Sequence record: PP761450.1
Direction: 5' to 3' (one strand)
DNA length: 64,000 nt
Source: Escherichia phage LHE287
Shown: positions 579-14,952 of the stretch, piece by piece
Position numbering within the stretch: the stretch's first letter is position 1
Layout: every line of letters begins with the position of its first letter
The notes under the pieces: generated by a model
Told to the model about the DNA's origin: nothing
Database searches by the model: none
What the model saw: the letters and a program-made list of their open reading frames with translations, nothing else
Translations under genes and position numbers: made by a program

Positions 579-857
579 TTACTTGCCGTTGGCAGCGTTC
601 TTCAGACCTTCGCCCACTTTGAATTTCACAACGTTTTTCGCCGCGATCTGAATGGTCTGGCCGTTCAGAGGGTTGCGACCTTCACGCGCTTCTTGGTGTT
701 TAACTTCGAACGCACCGAAGCCAACCAGCTGTACAGATGCGCCTGCAGCAACTGCAGTTTTAACACCGTCGATAAAGGATGCCACTACTTTCTCCGCTTC
801 GCCTTTGGTGATATTCTGGGTCGAAGCAATGTGGGCAACAAATTCAGTACGATTCAT
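579..857 (-). CDS. HU/IHF-family histone-like DNA-binding protein
   Basis: 92 aa; strong resemblance to bacterial HU (VQLVGFGAFEV...REGRNPLNGQTIQIAAKNVVKFKVGEGLK); RBS GGAGA upstream. Confidence 0.85.
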   Translation of the reverse strand: MNRTEFVAHIASTQNITKGEAEKVVASFIDGVKTAVAAGASVQLVGFGAFEVKHQEAREGRNPLNGQTIQIAAKNVVKFKVGEGLKNAANGK

Positions 858-947
858 CTGGATTTCTCCGTTGGATTAATGTTTACTTTCATGTTCACTA
901 CAAGAGGACTACATCTTACCTAACAAAACATATTGAATAAAGCGAAA

Positions 948-1232
948 TTATTGGGTGTTTCCTTTAGAGATGAATGATTCCATGTCTGTCCGGGAAATAA
1001 TCGTTTCTACACGATCTTCATCGATCAACATTTCGTTCAGAAGATCGTACCCCAGGACTTGTACATCACGCACACCACAAGATCGTTTGTTCAGTTCTGC
1101 CTCAACATTGAGAACCCGCTGAACCGTCAGGCCACCAGAGGAGAACGGTACTGGATAGAAAGCAGAACACACTTGCGTGCTCCCATTTACGCTGTAACGA
1201 ACCAGCAAGACATCACACCATACACCAGCCAT
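948..1232 (-). CDS. hypothetical protein
   Basis: 94-aa ORF with ATG and GGAGG RBS. Confidence 0.5.
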   Translation of the reverse strand: MAGVWCDVLLVRYSVNGSTQVCSAFYPVPFSSGGLTVQRVLNVEAELNKRSCGVRDVQVLGYDLLNEMLIDEDRVETIISRTDMESFISKGNTQ

Positions 1233-1233
1233 A

Positions 1234-1896
1234 TTACACCTCCACCGCGTGAGACTTCAGGAGTTCATCAATCTCTTTCTGTCCCATGTATGAGAACGGG
1301 GTGCGCTGGTAGAACGCCCAGAGTACTAACTGGACAACAGCACGGGAACGGGTTTCGGCCGTCATCACCAGGCCACTGAAATGAGGAGACTCAGCTGTCC
1401 ATTGTATCTCTTCGCCCAGGTCTTGATTACAGGTCACCGAGATGCGGAACTTGTTGCACAGATTGTCGACTTCTTTGTACGCATCGGTAGACACACGAAG
1501 TTGTTCCGCATGCGCCCACGGAGTTGTGACGATTCTTTCACCCATCACTTTATCAGAGATAAACCAATCAATACATTCGGTAAACTCACTAAAATGGTCG
1601 ATACGATAAATGCAGTCTCCCCCTTCCATAGAACGCATGGCATGATAGCGAGCGTCGATTTCGTTGTTGTGCATCGCGTTGAAGTCGATGAACACGCGAC
1701 GCGCCAGCACAACATCTTCTGGTTGAAGTGCCAAGAAATCGTTCAGGCGGCTATAATGGAGGATATTGGAACCGTCGTGGCCACGTGTGCAATATGCGTA
1801 ATAGCTACCGATACGGGCGTGGGCAATATAAGACAACGGGGCGAAGAATAATCCGTCAGGATCAGGACCGACGATAATAGAATAAAGTTTTTCCAT
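1234..1896 (-). CDS. hypothetical protein
   Basis: ORF 1234..1911 trimmed to first ATG (1896); the listed start is TTG. Confidence 0.5.
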   Translation of the reverse strand: MEKLYSIIVGPDPDGLFFAPLSYIAHARIGSYYAYCTRGHDGSNILHYSRLNDFLALQPEDVVLARRVFIDFNAMHNNEIDARYHAMRSMEGGDCIYRIDHFSEFTECIDWFISDKVMGERIVTTPWAHAEQLRVSTDAYKEVDNLCNKFRISVTCNQDLGEEIQWTAESPHFSGLVMTAETRSRAVVQLVLWAFYQRTPFSYMGQKEIDELLKSHAVEV

Positions 1897-1952
1897 GATA
1901 TAGTCACTCAAATGAAAGGGCAGCTTTATGATAAGCCGCCCGAGGTTATTGA

Positions 1953-2807
1953 TTATTGGAAATCGCCAACATACATGTTCAGCTTGTCGTCCCAGTTCAG
2001 AACGACACGGATCGTTCCGGTATCTTCTGGGAAGGTCAGTCTGTCACACATGGCGCGATTAACATAAGTCCCGCTCTGGTTGACGTTGTAGTCCTTGCCT
2101 TGCATGATACCAAAACGCTTGAAGTCGCGAGTGACCATCATGTTCAGAGTTGTCCAAGGGATTGCATCGCGCAGGGCTTTGCACAGGATGATCTTACCAT
2201 CCGACCTGAACGACACAAACAGCTCGTTGGCGATACGACGGCGAGTAGGCGGTTCAAGTTCACGCAGGGAAATGAATTGTGAATTCTTTACCTTTTCTGC
2301 CAGCGTCTGTACTTCTGCTGGATCCGGCTTGAACGACTCCACTGAAGAGTCAGACTTCATCACAACGTCACCCTTGCGCTTCTCAACCAATTGCTCCACA
2401 GCCTTTTGACTGTATTTGGACTTAGGAACAACCGCTGGCTTGATGACAGGGCTTGCATCTGGTTTCGCCTTTGGGGTACTCCGAGCCGCACGCAGCTTTT
2501 CCTGGGCTTCCAGAATGCGCTCTTGACGAGAAAGCGGAGCCTTTGGGGTGATCTTCGTACTGAAGTCAGAAACGCCGACCCAGTCACCCTGGTCATTACG
2601 CTTGGCGACCAGAGTCAGTTTGTGGATGATACCCTGAAGTTTGCTCTCACGTAAGTTGTCGGCATACCAGAACTTCGCGCCCATCTCGAACTTCTCGGCG
2701 AAGATCACGCGAGCGTCTTCGTGTACCAACATAACTTTGGCTGCGTTGGGGGCAAAAGCCTTATTCTTTTCGATAATCGCCGCAGCGATTGTTTTGGTCA
2801 GGAGCAT
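1953..2807 (-). CDS. hypothetical protein, Lys/Pro-rich central region
   Basis: ORF 1953..2891 trimmed to ATG at 2807 with GAAGGAA RBS. Confidence 0.45.
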   Translation of the reverse strand: MLLTKTIAAAIIEKNKAFAPNAAKVMLVHEDARVIFAEKFEMGAKFWYADNLRESKLQGIIHKLTLVAKRNDQGDWVGVSDFSTKITPKAPLSRQERILEAQEKLRAARSTPKAKPDASPVIKPAVVPKSKYSQKAVEQLVEKRKGDVVMKSDSSVESFKPDPAEVQTLAEKVKNSQFISLRELEPPTRRRIANELFVSFRSDGKIILCKALRDAIPWTTLNMMVTRDFKRFGIMQGKDYNVNQSGTYVNRAMCDRLTFPEDTGTIRVVLNWDDKLNMYVGDFQ

Positions 2808-2847
2808 CACAGTGTATTCCTTCAGTTCACAATGTAGGGCTAAAATT

Positions 2848-3174
2848 TTAACCCGAAACTTTATTTTGAAATCCGACAAAGTCCTGGGCAATCCCCCGGC
2901 AATACATCAGGTCTTTCTTCGTTTGTGGACTGTTATCAGCCGCAGTCAGCATCATGGGAAGATCCAGCGCATTCTCTATCTGATCAACACTGAACAGATC
3001 AAGGCGCTTCAGCTCTCCCTCGAAGTCAGACAGTAGGATAGATGTGTCTTTGTCATCTGGGTGGAACTGCTGATACGTCTCCATCCATGCCACACATGTG
3101 TTCAGTTTGGACGGTGGTGCGGCGTTTACACACCCGGCTATCAGTACCAACAAGAGCAGGATTTTACATTTCAT
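2848..3174 (-). CDS. putative lipoprotein
   Basis: N-terminus MKCKILLLLVLIAGC: signal peptide with lipobox-like LIAGC. Confidence 0.5.
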   Translation of the reverse strand: MKCKILLLLVLIAGCVNAAPPSKLNTCVAWMETYQQFHPDDKDTSILLSDFEGELKRLDLFSVDQIENALDLPMMLTAADNSPQTKKDLMYCRGIAQDFVGFQNKVSG

Positions 3175-3860
3175 CACTCGTTCTCCTTCATCATATTGTC
3201 ACAGTCAACACGAGTCTGCTGGAGTTCGCGCGACATGCGAGGATCATCAAGGTTCACGCTCAGATTCGTGGCCAGGTCTTTCAGACCGTTCTGAACCCTG
3301 TCTTCAAAGTAATAATCGTTCTCAACCAGCCAGGCTCTGAGACCAAGAGCGCGGGTGCGCCATTCCTTCTTCAGGATGCGATCAGAGGTCTGCGTGGCGC
3401 TGTATTCGAATACTTTGACGCACTGGTTGCCATCGTTGATGAGGTTCAGGTGACGGCGGCCTATCTGCACACCCTTCTGTAATGCCGGAGAAGGGAGCGA
3501 ACGGCACTGTCTTACGGTCATTCGGCCTTGGGTGCCCATACGCCCAGTCATGATCAAATCGCCAGCCTCCATGCCTCCACGGTTAAATTCGTCGTCATTG
3601 AGGTAGCCTTTGAGGTTATAGGCTCCCTGTTTGTAACGGTTGAACTCAATTCCGGCATTGACGACAGCGGTGGAGACGTTGCCTGTGTTCCAGAGTTCAG
3701 CGAAGTTCTCTATGGAACCAGACTTGTCGATGGCAACCGCCTGGGAGAACCCAGCACAATAGGAAAGGTCGGACCACAGTTTATCACCTGTGGAGTTCAG
3801 CTTGGCAGCGGCGGGTAATGCCAGACCAGCCAGCACAACCCCGAGGATTAAACGTTTCAT
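3174..3860 (-). CDS. secreted protein (signal peptide)
   Basis: Internal start MKRLILGVVLAGLALPAAA at 3860 with AAGGAG RBS; the longer listed ORF has no RBS. Confidence 0.55.
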   Translation of the reverse strand: MKRLILGVVLAGLALPAAAKLNSTGDKLWSDLSYCAGFSQAVAIDKSGSIENFAELWNTGNVSTAVVNAGIEFNRYKQGAYNLKGYLNDDEFNRGGMEAGDLIMTGRMGTQGRMTVRQCRSLPSPALQKGVQIGRRHLNLINDGNQCVKVFEYSATQTSDRILKKEWRTRALGLRAWLVENDYYFEDRVQNGLKDLATNLSVNLDDPRMSRELQQTRVDCDNMMKENE

Positions 3861-3939
3861 GGCGATTCTCCTTATTTCATTGGATGAAATGATAGGCGGC
3901 TCACCATGATGAGTAAAGGGATTCAATAAACTATCGTAT

Positions 3940-4389
3940 TCAGAAACGGGTATCGCTGACCGTTCTGTATCGCACACCCTGAAACTGTTTAGCGAGTTTA
4001 ACAAATTCCATCGCTGGCAAATCAACTTTGTAGACCTTCATGCGCTGTTTGCCGTCCATGTTCAACGCAGCGACAAATCGGTGAGAACCGTCAACAACGT
4101 AATTGTCAGAAGATACCCAAACTCGACCCATAGGTTTCTTATTTCTGATCTGCTTCATAATCTTCCAGACCTTCATTTTATTGATTTCGTTCTGGGTAAG
4201 ACGAAGCGTTTTGATGGGCACTTGCGCAGCATCTATGGACACGCCGTTGTCTTCAAGATATTTGTGAAAATCTTCTTGTTTGTCGGCATCGATTTGCGGC
4301 ATAGAAGAACGAGAAAGCCCGAGGTTCCCAACAGGAATCCTCAGGCCGTTAATGATGTTCAACCAGTCAATAAAAGATGTAAGGAACAT
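3940..4389 (-). CDS. hypothetical protein
   Basis: 149-aa ORF, ATG with GAGGTG RBS. Confidence 0.5.
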   Translation of the reverse strand: MFLTSFIDWLNIINGLRIPVGNLGLSRSSMPQIDADKQEDFHKYLEDNGVSIDAAQVPIKTLRLTQNEINKMKVWKIMKQIRNKKPMGRVWVSSDNYVVDGSHRFVAALNMDGKQRMKVYKVDLPAMEFVKLAKQFQGVRYRTVSDTRF

Positions 4390-4421
4390 GACACACCTCG
4401 GGATATAGGGTTATCCCTTAG

Positions 4422-4622
4422 TTAGCGCATCCATCGATCCTTTCTCTCTTTCTCCTTGCGTTCGCGACGTTTCTGGTCGGATCGGAATAACCAATAGAAG
4501 AAGTTCCCACCCAAGATGAAAACCACCGCGATTATTACTAGGACACCCTTCACAATTTCCCAAACCAATTCTTTATCCAAATTATACCTCTTCTTCTTCT
4601 TCTTCTTCAGGTCCACCGTCAA
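4422..4622 (-). CDS. possible small membrane protein (no ATG start; TTG or GTG or frameshift product)
   Basis: ORF-track frame contains a hydrophobic helix VLVIIAVVFILGG and a basic tail; begins inside the (GAA)6 run of the upstream gene. Confidence 0.25.
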   Translation of the reverse strand: MTVDLKKKKKKRYNLDKELVWEIVKGVLVIIAVVFILGGNFFYWLFRSDQKRRERKEKERKDRWMR

Positions 4623-4878
4623 TCAGGATACGAGCGGCGTCGAAAGTTTCCCCGCCCGTGTTCAGCAGCTTGGTCAGATCGTCAAGATATCGGACCGTGC
4701 CAAGATCAGATGACCGCGATATGAACTCCAGCATACCATACAACGCTGTTTGGAATCGGCTGTTATCGATATCGTTCTTTATTACCATCAGGCGCAAGAT
4801 GTTCTCTGACTGAGTATGGCCAACACACGCCTTGTCTCTGATCATCTCCTTGATAGAACTTCTCTCTGATGGTGTCAT
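4582..4878 (-). CDS. hypothetical protein with C-terminal poly-Glu tail
   Basis: 98 aa ending EEEEEEEV, encoded by a (GAA)6 run; ATG with G-rich RBS. Confidence 0.45.
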   Translation of the reverse strand: MTPSERSSIKEMIRDKACVGHTQSENILRLMVIKNDIDNSRFQTALYGMLEFISRSSDLGTVRYLDDLTKLLNTGGETFDAARILIDGGPEEEEEEEV

Positions 4879-5249
4879 AACGTACCCCCGACAGAGATCA
4901 AGAACTCTTCTTGCATGGTCTTGACCGGGTGGTGGTTGCGGGTTTCGAACATGAAGCCCCAGCCACCGTCGGCGACGTTGCCAAAGGTCTTGACGCCAAA
5001 GGACTTCGTCCCGTTGGAGCAGGAATAGATGTCCAGGACGTATGGGCTACCCTGATTGTCGATCCCACGATTCACGTCGTCTGATACGCAGCGCTCAATC
5101 ATCTTCCCGTTCTTATACAGAACGAGGTCTTGGCCATACGCCTTGAAAGCATAAACACCGTTGGTAGACACTCCGGTGATGACAGGAGGGGCGGAAACAG
5201 CAGCAAAGGAAGCGCCCAGCAGGGCAACAGCGAGGATTAACTTTTTCAT
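4875..5249 (-). CDS. secreted protein (signal peptide)
   Basis: Start MKKLILAVALLGASFAAVSA at 5249. Confidence 0.5.
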   Translation of the reverse strand: MKKLILAVALLGASFAAVSAPPVITGVSTNGVYAFKAYGQDLVLYKNGKMIERCVSDDVNRGIDNQGSPYVLDIYSCSNGTKSFGVKTFGNVADGGWGFMFETRNHHPVKTMQEEFLISVGGTL

Positions 5250-5308
5250 GATATAGTCTCTTGGTTTCAAATAGACGGGGTAATCATACCCCGCCCAAAG
5301 TTATAGAA

Positions 5309-5548
5309 TTAACTGATGTGCTTCAGAAGAGCGAAGAGGATCGCGGCCTTGGCCTTTACCTTTCCTACGATGCCTGTTTCGACATCAACTTCTTCAGCAA
5401 CCCACTCTTTTCCCTTCTTGCTGATGATAACGTCACGACGCTGTGCGTAGACTTCTTTGGTCGCATACACACGGCGGAACCCTTTAGCGCGGAGCAATCC
5501 CCAATTGCGATCAATTTCTACTGAGGTTTCTACCATTTTGTTCTTCAT
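5309..5548 (-). CDS. hypothetical protein
   Basis: 79-aa ORF; upstream AAGGTAAG...TTATATC-ATG. Confidence 0.45.
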   Translation of the reverse strand: MKNKMVETSVEIDRNWGLLRAKGFRRVYATKEVYAQRRDVIISKKGKEWVAEEVDVETGIVGKVKAKAAILFALLKHIS

Positions 5549-5599
5549 GATATAATCTTACCTTTCAACCCGGTGAACCCATCGTTCGCCAGTTATTGA

Positions 5600-5629
5600 A
5601 TAATACGCATTTACCTTATAGAAGTAAAC
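5600..5629 (-). promoter_or_regulatory. candidate sigma70/T4-early-type promoter (GTTTAC-N18-TATTAT)
   Basis: Minus-strand -35 GTTTAC (5624-5629) and -10 TATTAT (5600-5605), upstream of gene starting at 5548. Confidence 0.4.
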
Positions 5630-5640
5630 CCCTAAAAGTA

Positions 5641-5667
5641 AAAATCCCCAACAAACGTTGGGGATTT
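5641..5667 (-). terminator. rho-independent terminator
   Basis: ccccaac/gttgggg stem followed on the minus strand by TTTTTACTTTT; downstream of gene 5682..5906. Confidence 0.55.
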
Positions 5668-5681
5668 AATAAAAGTTATGC

Positions 5682-5906
5682 CTATTTAATTTCTCGGCTT
5701 GAATTTTCTAGTTCTAATTTTCTTATAGCGGAAATTCTGCCTTCATCAGTTGCGGGAAACTCCCAAACAGCACGACGCCCATTGTTGGTATCACAACTTG
5801 CCAGCCAGCAGAAATTAGAGGGGTCCTTAAACAAGACCAACTTCGGATTTCCTAAATTGATGAGGTTAAACGGGGTGAGGTCAACAACACATGATATAGC
5901 AGACAT
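5682..5906 (-). CDS. hypothetical small protein flanked by the two repeat copies
   Basis: 74-aa ORF, ATG with AGAAGG RBS. Confidence 0.4.
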   Translation of the reverse strand: MSAISCVVDLTPFNLINLGNPKLVLFKDPSNFCWLASCDTNNGRRAVWEFPATDEGRISAIRKLELENSSREIK

Positions 5907-5951
5907 AACATATACCTTCTTTCAATGAACGGGAACGCCCCGATCTATGAA

Positions 5952-6020
5952 TTCAATAATACGCATTTACCTTATAGAAGTAAACCCCTAAAAGTAAAAA
6001 TCCCCAACGTTTGTTGGGGA
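5952..6020. repeat. Direct repeat copy 2
   Basis: Same core as 5596..5667; the hairpin is present with its loop reverse-complemented. Confidence 0.7.
5956..5985 (-). promoter_or_regulatory. candidate sigma70/T4-early-type promoter (GTTTAC-N18-TATTAT)
   Basis: Same element as 5600..5629, upstream of gene starting at 5906. Confidence 0.4.
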
Positions 6021-6022
6021 CT
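5996..6022 (-). terminator. rho-independent terminator
   Basis: ccccaac/gttgggg stem plus U-run directly after the stop of the ACP-like gene. Confidence 0.5.
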
Positions 6023-6026
6023 TCTG

Positions 6027-6350
6027 TTATTTGCGCAGGGCAACCACGAGTTCAGCGAGTTCACCCATGGTCGGGTCGTCGCCTTTACTACCTAGCCACC
6101 CGTCGTCGATTTCGACCTGAAACTCTTCTTCGAGGTCCATTACAATTTCGATAGCGTCCAGTTCATCACCGCCGAGGTCTTTCTTGGTACGGAGGCCAGC
6201 CAGCTTGTCCAGGGCGTCCTCGTTCTGAGATGCCACGTCGTCCAGCAATTTGCGCTTGTCATCGTCACGCCACAGATCCATATTCAGATTGTCAGTGGCG
6301 TACTGAGCCAGATGACGCATGACTTCAACATATGTTGGCTTACTGCTCAT
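6027..6350 (-). CDS. acyl-carrier-protein-like protein (Ser-to-Glu at the phosphopantetheine site)
   Basis: KDLGGDELDAIEIVMDLEEEFQVEIDD aligns with E. coli ACP [27 protein letters not shown] (from memory); the conserved Ser is Glu here. Confidence 0.6.
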   Translation of the reverse strand: MSSKPTYVEVMRHLAQYATDNLNMDLWRDDDKRKLLDDVASQNEDALDKLAGLRTKKDLGGDELDAIEIVMDLEEEFQVEIDDGWLGSKGDDPTMGELAELVVALRK

Positions 6351-6369
6351 GCTACTTCTCCCAAAGAAA

Positions 6370-6385
6370 GGCGGGTTGCCCCGCC
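6370..6385 (-). terminator. GNRA-loop hairpin plus U-run after the vWA gene
   Basis: ggcggg-ttgc-cccgcc; minus strand shows a GCAA loop followed by TTTCTTT. Confidence 0.45.
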
Positions 6386-6392
6386 CGTTGGA

Positions 6393-8594
6393 TTAGATTT
6401 TGATTTCTTTCTCTGTCAGTTCGGCAGTGACCTTGTACTTCACGCCATCCACTTCAACTTCCATGGTGGACTCTTCCAGGTCGAGGTCGGTGAACCAGCC
6501 GTGGCCAGCAACGATACCATACACCACTTTAGACAGTGTCTTGTTCAGGGCACGGACTTCGGTGATGGCCGCCTTGGCAGCAGCGTCGATCCAGTTTTCG
6601 ATCAGCTGTTTCTGTAAGGCTTCAGGCACGGCAGTGATCATAGGAGACTTCACGAATGCTTCGTACTCTTTCAGAGCATTGGCGATGAACAAGTCACCAG
6701 CATTGAGTTTCTTGTTCTCTGCGATCTTCTTCTGTACTGCCGCGATGCTCGGTAGTGAAGACGCCCCGGCGATCTTCACGTTCAGCTCACGGCTCATGTA
6801 GAAGTCGGTAGACTCTTTGGTCTCAGTCTTCGGTGAGAAGCCGTAATCGCGGATGCCGTAGGAGGACAGGAACTCGGCCGCCTCAGCGCCGTACTGTACT
6901 GCCAGGCCTTTGGCGTTACCCTTACCAACCAGGGCGTCTCGATAGAACTTCAGCACCTTCTGCTTGCCTTTCAGGGCTTCCAGACGGACATTATCCGCAA
7001 AGAACTGAGCAGCACTGATGTTCTTGACCATGGCGCGGTTGACCAGCGGTACGCTTTCCAGGTTCAGGACAAACACTTCCGGGCCACCAAACACGTGGAC
7101 GCCCATTTCGATCAGCTTCTGTACAACTTCGATATCAGCCTTGAACGGCAGAGTCTTCACGTTAATGATACCGTCTTTGACGATGGTGTAGTTGCGCCAC
7201 TGGAAAGTATCCAGTTCTTCAGGCAGGCCAAACTTCTTCTGTGCGAATTCAGGCACAGCCACAGTACCGTGTTGAATTGTACGCACACTGATGTTCGGGC
7301 GCTCGGAGTTATAGACCAAATCACTGATTGGCACAACACCCAGATCGTTGGTAGGTTCGAACGTCGGGTTCCACTCTTCGTGTTCTGCCAGCTTGAGAGC
7401 CAGGGCTTTACGCTCTTCTTTGGACTGAGCATTCGCGATCTGTTCTGCCAGCTTGTCTTCGGTGTCGTCGGTTTTCTGCACAGTACCGCGCCCGATACTC
7501 TTATAGGAGAACATCGGATGCTTGGTAGCAACAGGTACACCAGCTTCAGCCAGGTACGTCAGCACATCAACGACGGTGGTCGCATCTTCAGCCGGAACCA
7601 GGTCATAGTCAATACCGTCAACGCCGCGCAGCTGGTCGTCAACAATCGCCTGAACCAGATCGTTCTTGATGTTGGAGTAGTCCTGCTTGGTGAAGCAGTT
7701 GCTGTACTGTTTGATGAAGCGAACGTCGCCCGTCTTCTTCAGCGCAGCCCAAACCAGATCTGCGTCCATAGTGTGTACACCGTAGAACGCCAGCACGTAT
7801 GCCGCCTGGATGTCCGTCAGGCTATCCATCTGGTCGATCATGTTAGGGTTTACAACCCACAGCTTGGTGACGCTCTCAGGGATGCTCACATAGCCGACCG
7901 GGTGAGAGTCATCGTCCTGCACCGCCAGTACTGTTGCCACACCGTTTTCGACGTAGATGGCATGGGTGTAGATGACTGGGACATCAACTTTCACCTTCGG
8001 CACTGATGACTTCAGCACGTTTTCCAGTTCGGTCTGGTATTCGGTCTGACCTTCGGCAAACACATGAGTCGCGCCAGAGCGCTCGGACATCAGAGCCAGC
8101 AGTTCGCGGTTACAGTGCCAGCCGTATTCGATGAAAGTAATGTTATCGAACGCAGAAGGCAAGGTTTCGGCGACGGCCAGGATTTCGTTTGAGCGCCAGC
8201 AGTTGTCATAACCATCGGTCATGAATGCCAGGTTGTTGACGTAACCAGGTTTCTTCAGGTCACGCGCAGTATCCATCGCCAGTTTCAACGGCTCAACGAA
8301 GCCAGTACATCCGGACGGTTGCAGGAAGCGATCGATCAGTTTGTTCAGCTCGCTCAGGTCAGACGCAGCACTAACCTGGCGGCCAGCGAACACAGTACCA
8401 AAGTCGCCTTTGGAGGAGAAATACAGAACGCTCACAGTGTCTTCCGGTTTCACCAGGGAAGGCAGGTTCTCCTTCAGATGCTTACGGACTTCAGGGAGCG
8501 CACGGTACATAGAGCCGGAAATGTCTACAACGATTACATGGTTGGACGGGGTAGCAGTCGCAACCGCATTCTTAAATTCTAATGATTCAATCAT
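6393..8594 (-). CDS. von Willebrand factor A (vWA) domain protein, 733 aa
   Basis: N-terminal MIDAS-like VVVDISGSM...TDG; start taken at MIESLEF (8594) with AAGGCGAAGAG RBS. Confidence 0.7.
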   Translation of the reverse strand: MIESLEFKNAVATATPSNHVIVVDISGSMYRALPEVRKHLKENLPSLVKPEDTVSVLYFSSKGDFGTVFAGRQVSAASDLSELNKLIDRFLQPSGCTGFVEPLKLAMDTARDLKKPGYVNNLAFMTDGYDNCWRSNEILAVAETLPSAFDNITFIEYGWHCNRELLALMSERSGATHVFAEGQTEYQTELENVLKSSVPKVKVDVPVIYTHAIYVENGVATVLAVQDDDSHPVGYVSIPESVTKLWVVNPNMIDQMDSLTDIQAAYVLAFYGVHTMDADLVWAALKKTGDVRFIKQYSNCFTKQDYSNIKNDLVQAIVDDQLRGVDGIDYDLVPAEDATTVVDVLTYLAEAGVPVATKHPMFSYKSIGRGTVQKTDDTEDKLAEQIANAQSKEERKALALKLAEHEEWNPTFEPTNDLGVVPISDLVYNSERPNISVRTIQHGTVAVPEFAQKKFGLPEELDTFQWRNYTIVKDGIINVKTLPFKADIEVVQKLIEMGVHVFGGPEVFVLNLESVPLVNRAMVKNISAAQFFADNVRLEALKGKQKVLKFYRDALVGKGNAKGLAVQYGAEAAEFLSSYGIRDYGFSPKTETKESTDFYMSRELNVKIAGASSLPSIAAVQKKIAENKKLNAGDLFIANALKEYEAFVKSPMITAVPEALQKQLIENWIDAAAKAAITEVRALNKTLSKVVYGIVAGHGWFTDLDLEESTMEVEVDGVKYKVTAELTEKEIKI

Positions 8595-8802
8595 TGTTCT
8601 CTTCGCCTTGTGCGTAAGGGTTAAGTTCAGACTCATCAGCGGCTTCGATGCGCGTCTTTACAGAGTCCAGCATATTGTTGATAAATTCACGAGACTGCTC
8701 CAGCTGAGCCAAGAGCACATCCTTTGGAGCATAGTTCTGAATGCAAGCCGGAATACTTTCAGACGTCGCCTTCAGGTCGGTAAAACATTCTTTCAGTATC
8801 AT
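8587..8802 (-). CDS. hypothetical protein
   Basis: 71-aa ORF ending 8 nt inside the vWA start. Confidence 0.4.
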   Translation of the reverse strand: MILKECFTDLKATSESIPACIQNYAPKDVLLAQLEQSREFINNMLDSVKTRIEAADESELNPYAQGEENND

Positions 8803-8880
8803 TTGATCTCACTTAACAGAGACGACGCCCTGTTGGGATTTAATAGCGGTCTTCACAGGCATCAGGTTTCCCTCAAAACA

Positions 8881-8896
8881 GGGGAGTTGCCTCCCC
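8881..8896 (-). terminator. GNRA-loop hairpin after the NAMPT-family gene
   Basis: ggggag-ttgc-ctcccc; followed on the minus strand by GTTTT. Confidence 0.45.
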
Positions 8897-8904
8897 TTCG
8901 GTTA

Positions 8905-10569
8905 TCAGATTTGTGAGGCCAGTTCTGTCACCAGAGGAGCGGCACGAACACGCGCATCTTCCAGTGTTTGAGTATTGAAGAACTCGCCATCACGATACAC
9001 CAGCTGGTGCTGGTTGTCGGCGTCTTGCACCTGATCAAAGGTGATACCGTCAACCAACACTAGTTTACCCTGAGAGTCTTTAATGACTTTAAGGAAACCA
9101 CGCGCAGACTTTTTAGTCCCGCCTTTATCGGTCTTCGGCTCTTTGAAGATCTCACGGAATTCACCGTTCACTTTACCAGCCGTGGCTTTCACTGCTGTGC
9201 CAGTACTGTCACGGGTGTTCATCTGGTAGGTGTAGGAACCGATACCGAACACCACGTTGATGGAAGCGAAGTTCCGGTCAGCCAGACGGCTAAAGATCTG
9301 GTCTTCACGCGCCAGGGTGATAGAATCACCGTAGATCAGGCCGATGTGCTCATCCAACAGGAAGTGCCCAGTTTCAGTCTGGGTGCCACCAAAGATCTCC
9401 CACAGGCGCTGGATAGAGCCGACCGCTTCTGAACGGCTGATGATATTACGGTCATCTACCATCAGAGAGTTGATCGTGCCTTCGCCTGTGATCAGGTGAT
9501 AGGTGTTCGTCTCTTCGATGTGGATAACTTCGGTGCTGCTAGACACGCCGCTGATGTTCAGCGTAGCGCGGTCTTTGAACCCCTCGATGCGGTAGCCGCC
9601 AACGATGTGTACAGGGTCGCCCGAGTCGGGGCGAATCACGACTTTACCATTGCGCGCCATGATAATGTCTTTCAGGCGAGGCAGATAGTCGTCGATGACC
9701 TGCCAGTAATCCCACGCATCAGACACGATGCTGACGATGCCATCAGGATACACGTCCTGCACCAGGCGGCGGAAGGTTTCGAATTCGCCATCCTTCGTGC
9801 CCATACACATCACCGCATGTTCCGTTGCGGCAACCGACCCAGCAACGACATAGTCTTCGTCGATGTCTGCGCCATAATACTCTTCTACGAAGTCCAGGGC
9901 AGGGTTGGTATCGGTGCCTTTGAAGAACACCAGATGACCGGAACCGGAAGACGCGGCATCATGCCACCCGCTCATACCACGAAAGGAGAAGTCGTGGCCT
10001 TGGTAGTCGATGAACCAATGGTCCGGTGATACTCCCGTAGCGAGGGCAGCTTTCACCATCAGTGCCTTGTAATGCAAAGCTATGGTGGCGTTCGTCATCG
10101 GCTTCCAGATCTCAGAGCTGAACACAGTCTCCAGATAGTTGGTCAGCCAGTAGAACTCCGGCAGGGTATTGAACATCACATACACCGGAACGCCATACGG
10201 GCACATGGTACCTTCAGGCAGCGCGCGGACTTCGATAGGCAGGTAGCCGAGGTCATGCAGGGCTTCAATATGCTCTGTGCCGACGCGGCCTGGACCCAGG
10301 ACTTTGTTCATGCGACGGGCATACTTCTTCAGCACCTTGGCCTTCGGGCGCTGGAAGAATGCTTCGTCAAACAGTTCGTGGAACCAGGTCATGAAGCCCT
10401 GGATGCCCCAGACCACCACGCCGTTCTTCGGCAGGTGAGAGTTGAACAGTTTGTTAGAGCGCGGAGTTCCGTTGGAGAACACCAGCTCACTGCCTTCAGG
10501 GAACTGATAGATGTGCCCCGATTTGTAGAAGTCGATCGCATGGATTGGGTCTAAGTGGCGCATGCTCAT
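8905..10569 (-). CDS. nicotinamide phosphoribosyltransferase family protein (NadV/Namat-like)
   Basis: 554 aa with NAMPT-like sequence throughout (DFYKSGH..., GSVAATEHAVM, IRPDSGDP); stop/start overlap with upstream gene. Confidence 0.85.
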   Translation of the reverse strand: MSMRHLDPIHAIDFYKSGHIYQFPEGSELVFSNGTPRSNKLFNSHLPKNGVVVWGIQGFMTWFHELFDEAFFQRPKAKVLKKYARRMNKVLGPGRVGTEHIEALHDLGYLPIEVRALPEGTMCPYGVPVYVMFNTLPEFYWLTNYLETVFSSEIWKPMTNATIALHYKALMVKAALATGVSPDHWFIDYQGHDFSFRGMSGWHDAASSGSGHLVFFKGTDTNPALDFVEEYYGADIDEDYVVAGSVAATEHAVMCMGTKDGEFETFRRLVQDVYPDGIVSIVSDAWDYWQVIDDYLPRLKDIIMARNGKVVIRPDSGDPVHIVGGYRIEGFKDRATLNISGVSSSTEVIHIEETNTYHLITGEGTINSLMVDDRNIISRSEAVGSIQRLWEIFGGTQTETGHFLLDEHIGLIYGDSITLAREDQIFSRLADRNFASINVVFGIGSYTYQMNTRDSTGTAVKATAGKVNGEFREIFKEPKTDKGGTKKSARGFLKVIKDSQGKLVLVDGITFDQVQDADNQHQLVYRDGEFFNTQTLEDARVRAAPLVTELASQI

Positions 10570-11420
10570 TTTACACGTCCTGTATTTTCAGTTTTGAAAG
10601 GGAGCCCGTCGGCGGTGATGTTCTCCCACCAGACGGTGTCGGCATACACAGCATCATAGATCCCGTCGAAAACAGAGAGACCTTTGCTGAAGATGCCATG
10701 GGTAACGAAGAGCGTCATGTGCTTAGGCTTGTGCTTCTGAAGCTCTTTGCCTAACTCAACGAACGTGCGCCCACCGTCGCAGATATCATCGACCACCACC
10801 AGATAGCGGTCTTTGATCAGTTCAGGGTTTGTAACACTCACCCCAATGATCTCACCAGTCTTGGTGTCACGGTTCTTGTGACCGTAGACAACAGGAACAC
10901 CGTCCAACGACAGGCTGAGGGCTTCGGTCTTCTTAGCCGCGCCGCCGTCAGGGGCTACCAACACAGCGTTGTTCCCACGGATGAACCAGCCCAGATACTG
11001 ACGCACGATGTAATCTTGCGGGACAACATGGACGTTGTTGATCAGAGAAGACACAACATGGCTGTGAGGATCTTTGATCGCCACGCGGTCAAAGTTCATG
11101 CTATTGATGAACTCAGCTGCCCACTTCACAGACAGAGGCTCACCGAAGTCACAATGGCGGTCCTGGCGAGCATACGGGAAGTAAGGGATATACGCATGGA
11201 ATGTCGTCAGACGGTCCACGTTACCCAGACCACGAACGGCGTTTACCAGAAGCGCCAGCTCAATGAAGTCAGCCGATGATTTGATGTGAGCATCAATCGC
11301 CACGTTCTGAACGTGGCCGATAGGGATACCAGACTTTTGAATCTTGATATGTTCCTCACCACCTGGGAAGGTGAAGTGTTTGTAGAACACATCTTGGTCG
11401 TTCAATTTCAAACGAAACAT
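10566..11420 (-). CDS. ribose-phosphate pyrophosphokinase family protein (Prs/Adps-like)
   Basis: 284 aa with type I PRTase/PRPP motif VVVDDICDGGRTF; 4-nt overlap with the NAMPT-family gene. Confidence 0.75.
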   Translation of the reverse strand: MFRLKLNDQDVFYKHFTFPGGEEHIKIQKSGIPIGHVQNVAIDAHIKSSADFIELALLVNAVRGLGNVDRLTTFHAYIPYFPYARQDRHCDFGEPLSVKWAAEFINSMNFDRVAIKDPHSHVVSSLINNVHVVPQDYIVRQYLGWFIRGNNAVLVAPDGGAAKKTEALSLSLDGVPVVYGHKNRDTKTGEIIGVSVTNPELIKDRYLVVVDDICDGGRTFVELGKELQKHKPKHMTLFVTHGIFSKGLSVFDGIYDAVYADTVWWENITADGLPFKTENTGRVK

Positions 11421-11528
11421 AATGTAGCCTCATGGTGTATTGTACAGCCGTATTATACTGTGATGCACAAATTGAAACGCCCAGCATTTACGCTGGACGT
11501 TATTGATATTGAAAAGGTTTTGACAAAC

Positions 11529-11762
11529 TCAGGATTTGGAGGAAGCGCCCTTCCATGTCTGACGTTTGTAGTAGGAAGCCATGGCCATCGACCCGGCGTA
11601 TTGCGTTTCACCCCTGACTACCACAGCCACAACCAGCTTATGTCGCAACAGGAAGTCCAGACCTGACTTAGACGGGATATCGCCAATGCTCAGTGGACCA
11701 CGATTGTACAGGGCATACATGGTGTCAAGCGCCGCCCCGGTAAAGATAATCTCTTTAGACAT
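11529..11762 (-). CDS. hypothetical protein
   Basis: Trimmed to MSKEIIF start (11762) to remove the 98-nt overlap in the ORF track. Confidence 0.4.
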   Translation of the reverse strand: MSKEIIFTGAALDTMYALYNRGPLSIGDIPSKSGLDFLLRHKLVVAVVVRGETQYAGSMAMASYYKRQTWKGASSKS

Positions 11763-11769
11763 GGCGGTC

Positions 11770-12075
11770 TCACTTAAACGAGTCAACGATGGATGTAAGA
11801 ATTTCGGGGGTGGGTTTGGCGTCTTGTGGTTCACGGAAACCCACCTTTGCGATGCGACCCAATACATTGTACACTTCGCGCGGAAGGGTGTCTACGACCG
11901 TGTCCGACATGAACACCACGTCTTCTTGGATGGCGTTGTATTCGGCCAGTTTAGCCAGTTCTGATTCTACCAGGGACTTCAGCTTTTGCAATGGGTCGTT
12001 GCAATAGTTGAGACGGTTACAGTTGGTGAGCGCCTGAGTTAGATTCTCAAACGCTTCTTGTATTTCCTTTGACAT
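11770..12075 (-). CDS. hypothetical protein
   Basis: Trimmed to MSKEIQE start (12075) with GAGG RBS. Confidence 0.4.
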   Translation of the reverse strand: MSKEIQEAFENLTQALTNCNRLNYCNDPLQKLKSLVESELAKLAEYNAIQEDVVFMSDTVVDTLPREVYNVLGRIAKVGFREPQDAKPTPEILTSIVDSFK

Positions 12076-12933: not shown

Positions 12934-14952
12934 TTAGAACACAACTTTCACAGTGCGGTTGAACGAACCGCTCACCTTCACGAACACGTGGTTGCGTTGG
13001 GTGGTAGAGAAGCCCAGACCGGACAGCTGCTCAGTGCTTGGCTGTACTTTAATCTTACCACCTAACATTTCAAAAACCTTGCGGTGTTTATCAAGTTCCG
13101 GCTTCAGATATTCGTTATAGAAACCACGGGTGCCGACAGGGTTAGCACAACCTTCCAGGATGAAGAACACGTGCTTGTTGCCAGTCTGCTCGCCGTCCCA
13201 ATGGTTTGGTGAGTTCAGAACCAGCTGTACCTTCTGGAAGACGGAGGTCTTGATGCCCCAGATTTCCTGAGAGCGAGCGTCGTCTTTCAGGGTAGAACTG
13301 ATGTCAACCACCTGACCAGCGCGAACCTGAACCACAACAGCCAACGTGCGATCTTTGTTACCCAGGCCAGGGTGTGAGAAGCGCTTAGTCTGACCTTTGT
13401 ATTCAACTTCGATTTCGAAACCAACGTCACAGGTTTCACGCTTGTTGAAGTTGGTGACATAGAACTCATAATTCCCGTCACGCAACTTGCGTTCATCGCT
13501 AAAGAAGATGTTCTCCACCGGACGGCGGTTTGGATCAATGCCGTCCATACCGTTCATGTCGATGTCCAGAGTTGCGCCAGTTGTCGAACGACGGTTGCGA
13601 AAATATACGTGGTTGTGAAGAGGATCGTTCATGCTCAGATCCAGGTCGTCGTTGTTATGCCAAGCCAGTGACACGCGGAGGAAGCTGTCGACATTGCCGC
13701 CTGCGGTCTTCACGCGCTCTTTGATGGAGTCGGCCACTTCGCCATTGTACGACCAGCTGAAGCCGTTGTTCCACTTGAACAGGTTAGGAGCGCCTGCGGT
13801 AGCCGGAGCGATCAGGGACATCAGGTTGCCAATGTGAGAGTTTTCGACCAGCACTTCCAGGGAATGCGCCTTTGGCAACACGTTGGTCAGGAAGTCGTCG
13901 ATCGTGATCTCTTCAACCTTGTCCAGGGACTTGGTCGGAGTCTTCACTTCAGACGCCAGCTGAGCAAACGGGTCCATCTTCTTCTGAGCTGCCAGATCGG
14001 CGAACAGAACGTTGTTGATGGTCAGATCGTCATACACGGCATAACGGCGACCCAGTGAATCGGTCAGACCCAGCGCTTCGACTTCTTTCTGCGCGTTTTC
14101 AATCATCGACTTCGTGACCAGCGCGGTTGGGCGCTTGTAGTTCGTCGGAGCGACTTTGGCTTCAAAGGACTTCACGGCGGTTTCCAGATCCCGGCCTTCA
14201 TTGAGGTCTACCAGCAGAGAGCCAATCACGGTATTACGAATGCCGTGAGGGGTATGACCGTTTGCACGGTAGCCAGTGCGCCAAGCCCACAGAGCGCGTT
14301 TCTCTTCTGCAGTTTGTTCGTACAGGGTCTTGTTCACCACGAACGCCTGCACTGCCGCTTTGTGCTCTTCACCGCGATACAGAGAATTCTGGTCAATCAA
14401 TTCCAGAACGATTTCAGCCGATTCCAGAGACAGTTCACGCAGGCCGCGCTCAAACACTTCAATCGCCTGGCGGATTTCACCCTTCTTAGAAGCGATGGTA
14501 TCTGCCCGCAGAACATAGCTGCCCAGCAGGTCGGTGTGGAAGTGGTTGTAGGTACGGACAATACCATCTTTCATTTCGTGATTCGACTCAACACCAACTT
14601 TCTTGGTGTCGTTGAAGTACACGTCGACGATTGCGTGCTGCTTAACATATGCTGACAGCGCCGCAGCGACAACGTCGTATTCGTTACCCAGCTGAATGTT
14701 ATCCCAGATAGAGATCACGTTCAGATCGGAGTCGATGGTGACTACACCGCCGATGTTACGGATGAATTGTTTGCAGCAGGTGCAGTCGTGCTCGGTACGC
14801 TCACGATAAAGCGGGTTAGTGCCAGCAGGGAAAGAAGACAGATACAGATCCCACAGAGCATCTTTATCGATGTTGGTCATGAACAGACCAGTTGCTGACA
14901 TGGCCAGCACGTTATTGTTGACAGCTACTGCGAAGGGCTTAAAATCTGACAT
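12934..14952 (-). CDS. hypothetical large early protein (672 aa)
   Basis: Long ORF with AGGAAG RBS; no motif I can assign. Confidence 0.6.
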   Translation of the reverse strand: MSDFKPFAVAVNNNVLAMSATGLFMTNIDKDALWDLYLSSFPAGTNPLYRERTEHDCTCCKQFIRNIGGVVTIDSDLNVISIWDNIQLGNEYDVVAAALSAYVKQHAIVDVYFNDTKKVGVESNHEMKDGIVRTYNHFHTDLLGSYVLRADTIASKKGEIRQAIEVFERGLRELSLESAEIVLELIDQNSLYRGEEHKAAVQAFVVNKTLYEQTAEEKRALWAWRTGYRANGHTPHGIRNTVIGSLLVDLNEGRDLETAVKSFEAKVAPTNYKRPTALVTKSMIENAQKEVEALGLTDSLGRRYAVYDDLTINNVLFADLAAQKKMDPFAQLASEVKTPTKSLDKVEEITIDDFLTNVLPKAHSLEVLVENSHIGNLMSLIAPATAGAPNLFKWNNGFSWSYNGEVADSIKERVKTAGGNVDSFLRVSLAWHNNDDLDLSMNDPLHNHVYFRNRRSTTGATLDIDMNGMDGIDPNRRPVENIFFSDERKLRDGNYEFYVTNFNKRETCDVGFEIEVEYKGQTKRFSHPGLGNKDRTLAVVVQVRAGQVVDISSTLKDDARSQEIWGIKTSVFQKVQLVLNSPNHWDGEQTGNKHVFFILEGCANPVGTRGFYNEYLKPELDKHRKVFEMLGGKIKVQPSTEQLSGLGFSTTQRNHVFVKVSGSFNRTVKVVF

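Follow-up and report, generated by a model that had tools for sequence, protein, structure and literature searches.

A predicted minimal two-gene NAD+ reconstitution (NARP1) module in the Agtrevirus-like Escherichia phage LHE287

Two adjacent and co-oriented genes were found on the minus strand of a 64,000-nt stretch of Escherichia phage LHE287 (sequence record PP761450.1; the whole stretch is hereafter called the window). The upstream gene, adps, encodes a 284-aa protein resembling phosphoribosyl pyrophosphate (PRPP) synthetases (Prs), and the downstream one, namat, a 554-aa homologue of nicotinamide phosphoribosyltransferase (NAMPT or Nampt). This order, with the second gene directly behind the first and a 4-nt overlap between them, had been noticed in an earlier inspection of the letters alone (the sequence-only reading), and it was confirmed by the list of open reading frames (ORFs) with its coordinates and by the matches of the two proteins to the models NF006629 and TIGR01251, which greatly exceed what chance would give. 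The ATGA at the junction of the two genes (within GGACGTGTAAAATGAGCATG) was unchanged in phages AV101 and SKML-39 and in Klebsiella phage May. We predict the 284-aa protein to be an ADP-ribose pyrophosphate synthetase (Adps) and the 554-aa protein to be a nicotinamide ADP-ribose transferase (Namat), and the pair very probably constitutes a minimal two-gene module of NAD+ reconstitution pathway 1 (NARP1) in an Agtrevirus-like Ackermannviridae phage.

According to the proposed mechanism, a host immune effector of the SIR2, TIR or SEFIR type would split NAD+ into ADP-ribose and nicotinamide; Adps would then move pyrophosphate from ATP onto ADP-ribose to give ADPR-pyrophosphate (ADPR-PP), and Namat would swap this pyrophosphate for nicotinamide, yielding NAD+ directly and allowing the phage to replicate. 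The pathway was described by Osterman et al. (bioRxiv 10.1101/2024.02.11.579819), who noted in BASEL phages an operon of a Prs-like and a Nampt-like gene and reported that its deletion from Bas63 led to ~20-fold fewer plaques on SIR2-HerA cells. In the same work, the Prs-like enzyme of SPbetaL1 converted ADP-ribose and ATP into ADPR-pyrophosphate, with no Prs-type product in the control reaction, whereas the Nampt-like enzyme formed NAD+ from ADPR-PP and nicotinamide, with preference for ADPR-PP when PRPP was present too; the pathway was impaired by the substitutions K162A in Adps, which impairs NAD+ production, and R306G in Namat. Members of the Adps clade were predominantly from phages and stood apart from Prs, 97% of them had Namat nearby, and 859 phages (4.3%) carried the pathway. 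The chemistry has been shown in vitro for SPbetaL1 and in vivo through deletions in Bas63 and FADO; for the window we infer it by homology.

The 284-aa protein matched Pribosyltran/Pribosyltran_N in Pfam, TIGR01251 (E 6e-30) and PHROG 619 (E 3e-90). Its TIGR01251 score (104.2) was below the NCBIfam cut-off of 113, and the Prs equivalog models of NCBIfam gave 47-90 bits against cut-offs of 296-536 (e.g., 81.6 vs. 297). Table S1 of Osterman et al. flags the Prs-like proteins of the relatives SKML-39, MK-13, Ag3 and Klebsiella phage 0507-KN2-1 as "Namat within 10 genes: Yes", a distance that also holds for the two adjacent window genes; the same table contains ordinary bacterial Prs rows flagged "No", so that a listing there is no proof by itself and the placement was tested independently. 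For this purpose, the protein was aligned with the validated Adps of Bas63, SPbetaL1 and FADO, with a further 14 Prs-like proteins linked to Namat (13 of phage origin and one from the bacterium Curtobacterium) and, as representatives of Prs, with the E. coli enzyme, four actinobacterial ones flagged "No" and one archaeal fragment; a tree was built by neighbor-joining with 200 bootstraps. The window protein fell inside the clade of all three validated Adps (bootstrap 90.5 vs. the archaeal Prs and 99.5 vs. the bacterial Prs) and formed a 100% bootstrap subclade of Gram-negative phages with Bas63 Adps. A hidden Markov model (HMM) built from the other Adps-clade sequences, in a leave-one-out design, gave 273 bits for the window protein as compared to 77 bits with a Prs HMM. 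Fold and catalytic lysine are common to Adps and cellular Prs, the latter differing in its substrate loop and in having N- and C-terminal extensions; the window protein lacks these segments of class I Prs, and its loop residues ICDGGRTF recurred in 94 of the 120 database homologues nearest to it.

The 554-aa protein matched NAPRTase in Pfam and NF006629 in NCBIfam (472.6 bits, E 1e-141). When it was compared with the PDB, the top hits were the SPbetaL1 Namat structures 9W5X and 9W5W (455 bits, E 2e-135), followed by 9KE8 (355 bits) and then by mammalian Nampt, including the human enzyme (~173 bits). The AlphaFold2 model of the window Namat was confident (pLDDT 94.3, pTM 0.93) and superposed on 9W5X with a TM score of 0.95 and a root-mean-square deviation of 1.9 A, the TM scores being 0.92 for HdNadV and 0.88-0.91 for mammalian Nampt. 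In the tree, the protein grouped with all validated Namats at 100% bootstrap; its identity to them was 46-51%, as compared to 29-32% for Nmnat-linked Nampt. The residues of the catalytic core (F189, D215, R306, D308, D13, Y15 and T398-R399-D400 in SPbetaL1) were all identical. Out of 20 NAD-contacting residues of SPbetaL1 Namat, 16 were likewise conserved; three of the substitutions (R40K, A362S and F392Y) also occur in the validated enzymes of Bas63 or FADO, and the remaining one replaces SPbetaL1 Y396 with Met450.

Structural work on SPbetaL1 Namat (PMC12774641, 2026 NAR; structures 9W5X and 9W5W) described a selectivity clamp of two parts, a variable loop (SCL) whose third residue is R, K or Y and a helix (SCH) with the motif GSX-phi-X-phi-X-phi-TRD. 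Positions 3 and 7 of the SCH stack on the adenine, position 7 being "most often aromatic", which is worded as a tendency; activity fell 1.3-1.7-fold in single clamp mutants and by up to 16.6-fold in double mutants. Both elements were recognized in the window Namat. Position 3 of the SCH is aromatic (Tyr446), and the third SCL residue, Lys40, followed by Leu-Phe, conforms to the published rule; the loop is similar in length to that of Bas63 and longer than that of Nmnat-linked Nampt, which carries GGGLLQxV[TN]RD at the SCH site. Among the 120 nearest database homologues, all displayed a Namat-type SCH motif, with Tyr (92), Met (12), His (8), Phe (7) or Cys (1) at position 7.

All these factors taken together supported NARP1: the sequence discriminators tested favor it over ordinary NAD salvage, and the choice between the two appears largely decidable at this level. 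The sequence-only reading had proposed NARP1 as a candidate, which gained support from the clade placement, the HMM scores, the missed Prs cut-offs, the clamp motif, the match to SPbetaL1 Namat and the absence of an NMNAT gene from the window (see below). Its view that sequence alone cannot decide between the two pathways was too cautious, as published motifs and trees exist; the phylogenetic placement that it proposed as a check put both proteins within the clades of validated Adps and Namat. Positions of the genes and of the elements discussed here are collected in Table 1.

Table 1. Genes, protein elements and putative expression signals of the adps-namat locus (positions in the window)
Feature	Position	Strand	Basis or remark
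adps, 284 aa, Prs-like, ATG start	10566..11420	minus	ORF list; predicted ADP-ribose pyrophosphate synthetase, first NARP1 enzyme
namat, 554 aa, NAMPT-like, ATG start	8905..10569	minus	ORF list; predicted nicotinamide ADP-ribose transferase, second NARP1 enzyme
ATGA, overlap of adps stop and namat start (4 nt)	10566..10569	minus	Read from sequence
Adps Lys182 codon	10875..10877	minus	Alignment; equivalent to catalytic K162 of SPbetaL1 Adps
Adps substrate loop DDICDGGRTF, residues 211-220	10761..10790	minus	Same as Bas63 Adps; canonical Prs DD[ML]IDTGGT
Namat SCH motif GSYTYQMNTRD, residues 444-454	9208..9240	minus	Published Namat consensus except Met at position 7
Namat SCL SNKLFNSHLPK, residues 38-48, Lys40 third	10426..10458	minus	Aligned to SPbetaL1 R40 and Bas63 K
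Namat insertion of ~58 aa, residues 326-383, small alpha/beta subdomain	9421..9594	minus	Alignment gap vs. SPbetaL1 Namat
AGGA, Shine-Dalgarno-like, for namat, within 3' end of adps	10578..10581	minus	8 nt before ATG; putative
GAGG, Shine-Dalgarno-like, for adps	11428..11431	minus	7 nt before ATG; putative
GC-rich hairpin (AGGGGAG-GCAA-CUCCCCU) with short 4-U tract, possible terminator	8875..8897 (hairpin 8880-8897)	minus	8 nt past namat stop

No NMNAT, the partner that would indicate NARP2, was detected in the 64-kb window by tblastn with three phage NMNAT proteins (best E 0.89). When the two ORFs downstream of the pair and the five upstream of it were scanned against Pfam and PHROG, neither a Macro domain (Adpp) nor a RyR domain (RyDEP) was detected, and no NMNAT, Nudix or other NAD/ADP-ribose domains; these ORFs encode a protein with a VWA domain, a zinc-finger protein of the DUF3268 type and members of PHROGs of unknown function. 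The locus is the minimal two-gene form of NARP1: NARP1-AP, which adds the Macro-domain phosphatase Adpp, and the RyDEP-extended NARP1 have the same Adps and Namat core, whereas the genes flanking the window pair lack both domains. Because Adpp and RyDEP are missing, the module should, judging from published work on other systems, counter defenses that yield plain ADP-ribose and not aRES, which yields ADPR-1''-phosphate.

The association of NAMPT-like genes with their partners was surveyed by tblastn with the window protein in 50,697 phage records, a homologue being present in 2,046. Below the close Ackermannviridae relatives the identities were bimodal, the sampled matches being either at least 37% or about 28% or lower; between these groups or elsewhere only partial or split matches occurred. 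In the regions fetched from the upper group (FADO, MD-2021a, K5, DuncansLeg and Antha) a Prs-like gene stood just upstream of the NAMPT-like gene; for Staphylococcus phage phiSA039 it was outside the stretch fetched, and Table S1 of Osterman et al. flags the pairing. In the lower group, an NMNAT/Nudix gene adjoined in RHph_X66 and Moby, and no partner was found within the stretch fetched for the T4-like phages K14-2 and 60AhydR15PP. Two members of the upper group displayed additional neighbors. Acinetobacter phage MD-2021a carries Adps, Namat and a bifunctional NMNAT/ADP-ribose pyrophosphatase in a row (positions 593-3810 of the fetched stretch), which may be a combined NARP1 and NARP2-like arrangement, and in Pseudomonas phage K5 a gene annotated as "phosphatase" is located two genes downstream of Namat (3383-3862 of the fetched stretch).

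Homologues were also present in chromosomes of Bacteroidota. They were considered as a sign that the clade represents ordinary NadV, and this was rejected since they proved to be Adps-type/Namat-type pairs under NrtR-like regulators. In Fibrella aestuarina (2361-7174 of the fetched stretch) and Chitinophaga caseinilytica (3321-6923 of the fetched stretch), the cluster combines a Prs-like gene of Adps type (DDICDGGGTF, DPHS) with a gene of Namat type (GS[YF]TYEYVTRD) and a Nudix regulator of NrtR type; an ADP-ribosylglycohydrolase or a Tpt1-like (PTS_2-RNA) gene is present as well. These clusters look like a housekeeping, ADP-ribose-regulated NARP1 of Bacteroidota.

Genes 79-80 of Escherichia phage Bas63 (JohannRWettstein, Felixounavirus), which have a reported deletion phenotype, are among the closest known systems. 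The Prs-like gene precedes the NAMPT-like gene in both, as it does in the FADO, DuncansLeg, Antha and MD-2021a pairs, and the two Namats agree in the third residue of the SCL (K) and of the SCH (Tyr) and in having a large insertion after the RPDSGDPVHIV motif. In contrast, the Bas63 genes are separated by a 45-nt gap instead of overlapping by 4 nt, the insertion is ~30 aa longer, SCH position 7 is Tyr instead of Met, and identity to the window proteins was 32.6% for Adps and 46.1% for Namat. SPbetaL1 and FADO share with the window the catalytic core residues, the Adps catalytic lysine and the Namat-type SCH motif, SPbetaL1 being the best PDB match in both sequence and structure; they differ by the Gram-positive Adps loop DDLSS[FY]GGTF, by Namats without insertion and, in SPbetaL1, by Arg at SCL position 3, with identities of 24-30% for Adps and ~49% for Namat. 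The Ackermannviridae orthologues (SKML-39, MK-13, Ag3 and 0507-KN2-1, and the genes named NAMPT and RPPK in AV101) are essentially the same genes, with 95-98% DNA identity and the same junction and clamp residues; there was no substantive difference from the window apart from the fused and truncated version of Ag3.

The NARP2/KVP40-type system (Nampt plus bifunctional Nmnat) also rebuilds NAD+ during infection by means of a NAMPT-fold enzyme. It differs by its NMNAT/Nudix partner, by GGGLLQ in place of the clamp motif, by a short SCL, by its lower identity (29-32%) and by starting from PRPP. HdNadV (PDB 9KE8 and 9KEO) is 44% identical to the window Namat and lies within the same 100% clade as the validated Namats, whereas its clamp carries Glu in the SCL, Gln at SCH3 and Arg at SCH7 and it was crystallized with nicotinamide mononucleotide (NMN) and nicotinamide.

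Several observations weigh against a NARP1 assignment. The window Adps was only 24-33% identical to the validated enzymes, and since the PDB search returned no Adps structure, the residues that choose ADP-ribose over ribose-5-phosphate are not structurally defined. In Namat, SCH position 7 is the non-aromatic Met450 where SPbetaL1, Bas63, FADO and ICP1 have Tyr, and no validated Namat with Met at this position was found. In vitro, Namat can still make NMN from PRPP, so a degree of ordinary salvage is possible. Because HdNadV, crystallized with NMN, falls inside the Namat clade, the substrate cannot be read from the clade by itself. A literature search revealed no experiment on NARP1 in Ackermannviridae, be it an enzyme assay, a measurement of metabolites or the phenotype of a deletion, and a scan of positions 8500-11900 for promoters and terminators called neither a sigma-70 promoter nor a canonical terminator for the pair itself, the counts being at the level of shuffled sequences. 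Namat-like and Nampt-like specificities appear to interconvert inside one clade, and the substrate would be decided by the clamp residues and the Adps partner, both present in the window.

Under ordinary NAD salvage, a true PRPP synthetase and a true NadV/Nampt would together produce NMN, to be turned into NAD+ by NadR or PncC-dependent routes of the host, in a logic similar to NARP2 but with an adenylyltransferase supplied by the host. The Pfam, PHROG and GenBank annotations do read Prs and NAMPT, and the NMN formation by Namat enzymes in vitro and the presence of the NMN-forming HdNadV in the same sequence clade point in the same direction. Nevertheless, this explanation is unlikely. The Prs-like protein remained under every NCBIfam Prs cut-off and grouped with Adps instead of Prs, and in the in-vitro assay of Osterman et al. 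no Prs-type product was formed by its homologue from SPbetaL1; the window NAMPT-like protein possesses the adenine clamp, which is missing from HdNadV and from Nmnat-linked Nampt; phage Nampt of the NMN route comes with an NMNAT, absent from the 64-kb window; and Bas63 NARP1 still worked in a pncC nadR double mutant (10.1101/2024.02.11.579819). The results on Prs cut-offs, Adps clustering and the SPbetaL1 assay also contradict a role of the pair in supplying PRPP for nucleotide synthesis, by which it would enlarge the precursor pool for phage DNA replication. This idea comes from the discussion of the AV101 genome paper, where the pair was suggested to boost such precursors, and it agrees with the location of the genes in a minus-strand block shared with helicase, clamp loader and RegA genes. 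[quoted passage not shown]

That the pair is a decaying or non-functional remnant in this lineage is suggested by its loss or breakage in the sister phages RPN242 and Ag3 and by the departure of SCH position 7 from the usual aromatic residue. Against this, both ORFs are intact and full length, all catalytic residues are kept, the Namat model is confident, and ratios of nonsynonymous to synonymous substitution rates (dN/dS) were 0.01-0.07 with dS up to 0.9, which makes decay extremely improbable. Where present, adps and namat are under strong purifying selection. For adps, dN/dS was 0.074 vs. AV101, 0.036 vs. SKML-39 and 0.036 vs. May, and for namat 0.026 vs. AV101 and 0.011 vs. SKML-39; May was left out of the namat calculation since compensating indels shift the register of the ungapped comparison, and its Namat was 93.3% identical to that of the window in a proper amino acid alignment.

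The pair was found in 8 of 14 Agtrevirus genomes. In Escherichia phage RPN242, whose flanks are 97-98% identical, the equivalents of window positions 11274-9445 and 9299-8857 are gone, leaving a remnant (3864-4134 of the fetched stretch) with a 78-aa ORF made of 49 adps codons and out-of-frame namat sequence. RPN242 represents a natural knockout, and AV101 or YX22 vs. RPN242 offers a ready-made presence/absence comparison. In Shigella phage Ag3, residues 1-222 of Adps and 227-554 of Namat are fused in frame at a common FVE tripeptide into a 547-aa protein from which the Namat N-terminal domain has been removed; PHROG 12872 was built on this chimera and for that reason matches both window proteins. 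Strong constraint combined with repeated loss agrees with an accessory counter-defense gene that is of use only under certain conditions.

Within the NARP1 assignment, the window Namat presents two peculiarities, Met450 and the ~58-aa insertion. The latter directly follows the catalytic RPDSGDP loop, is missing from the Namats of SPbetaL1, FADO and Staphylococcus, and occurs in variable form in those of Bas63, K5 and Antha; AlphaFold2 modeled it confidently, with strands at residues 328-331, 348-351 and 356-359. Together they could change the range of substrates or add an interaction, making the module a functional variant of NARP1 instead of a plain orthologue; for instance, a modified ADP-ribose derivative might be accepted, or Adps might dock to channel the labile ADPR-PP. 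We consider such a variant improbable.

With regard to expression, the ATGA overlap and the AGGA within the 3' end of adps suggest that both proteins are translated in a coupled manner from a single mRNA. The sequence-only reading had called the genes translationally coupled; the overlap was as it described, and coupling itself is a reasonable expectation from this anatomy. The hairpin behind namat had a folding energy of -17.3 kcal/mol (z -2.0) and was not called by the terminator scan, and the record of Klebsiella phage May has an annotated terminator at the equivalent place; the hairpin might act as a terminator. A perfect TATAAT is present at 11452-11457 (minus strand), 31 nt upstream of the adps start and with no recognizable -35, and a sigma-70-like site with 10 of 12 matches (TAGACA-17-TACAAT) at 11866-11894 (minus strand), upstream of the preceding small ORF; neither exceeded shuffle expectation. 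We do not propose that the pair forms a transcription unit of its own, given the shuffle-level counts of promoters and terminators, the TATAAT without a -35 and a U-tract of only 4 U in the hairpin.

The assignment of NARP1 in this phage group is already known and involves no new biology. Table S2 of Osterman et al. (10.1101/2024.02.11.579819) lists the NAMPT-like proteins of SKML-39 and MK-13 as "Adps-associated", and a 2024 review of Ackermannviridae (PMC11721090), citing that work, stated that the Agtrevirus NAMPT and RPPK genes could help evade NAD+-depleting defense. In Vibrio phage ICP1, NrsAB has been described by its authors as a functional NAD+-regenerating system and equated with Adps and Namat; its SCH reads GSYTYQYVTRD. 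GenBank records still name the genes ribose-phosphate pyrophosphokinase and nicotinamide phosphoribosyltransferase, and the practical value for the window is the corrected annotation of two genes. By means of NARP1 a phage escapes a whole class of defenses (SIR2-HerA/Nezha, Thoeris, DSR1/2, SEFIR and others) through repair of the damage and not by blocking the sensor. Ackermannviridae are widely considered for the control of Salmonella, E. coli, Shigella and Klebsiella, and NARP1 carriage in therapeutic-candidate phages helps predict host range.

As regards the origin of the window, megablast with the 2.5-kb adps-namat segment matched 89 phage records, the closest being Escherichia phages YX22 (98.4%) and AV101 (97.9%), Shigella phage MK-13 (95.5%) and Salmonella phage SKML-39 (95.2%), which belong to the Aglimvirinae/Agtrevirus group of Ackermannviridae; judged by these matches, the source is an Agtrevirus-like Ackermannviridae phage. 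The module is located between replication genes and hypothetical genes in the long minus-strand block mentioned above, and the remainder of the window contains structural and tail-spike genes; a tRNA scan of the window found none. Two large proteins are encoded on the minus strand at the flanks, one of 747 aa with an N-terminal VWA domain (PHROG 2426; 6393-8636) and another of 672 aa without Pfam match (PHROG 1735; 12934-14952), and both are retained in RPN242 although the NARP1 genes are gone. Three "Ralstonia" records appeared among the close DNA matches to the segment, and a copy of adps with 93% identity was present at 4898-5749 of OR844942.1 ("Enterococcus phage Efm 3-10", 111 kb), a record that is probably mislabeled or contaminated.

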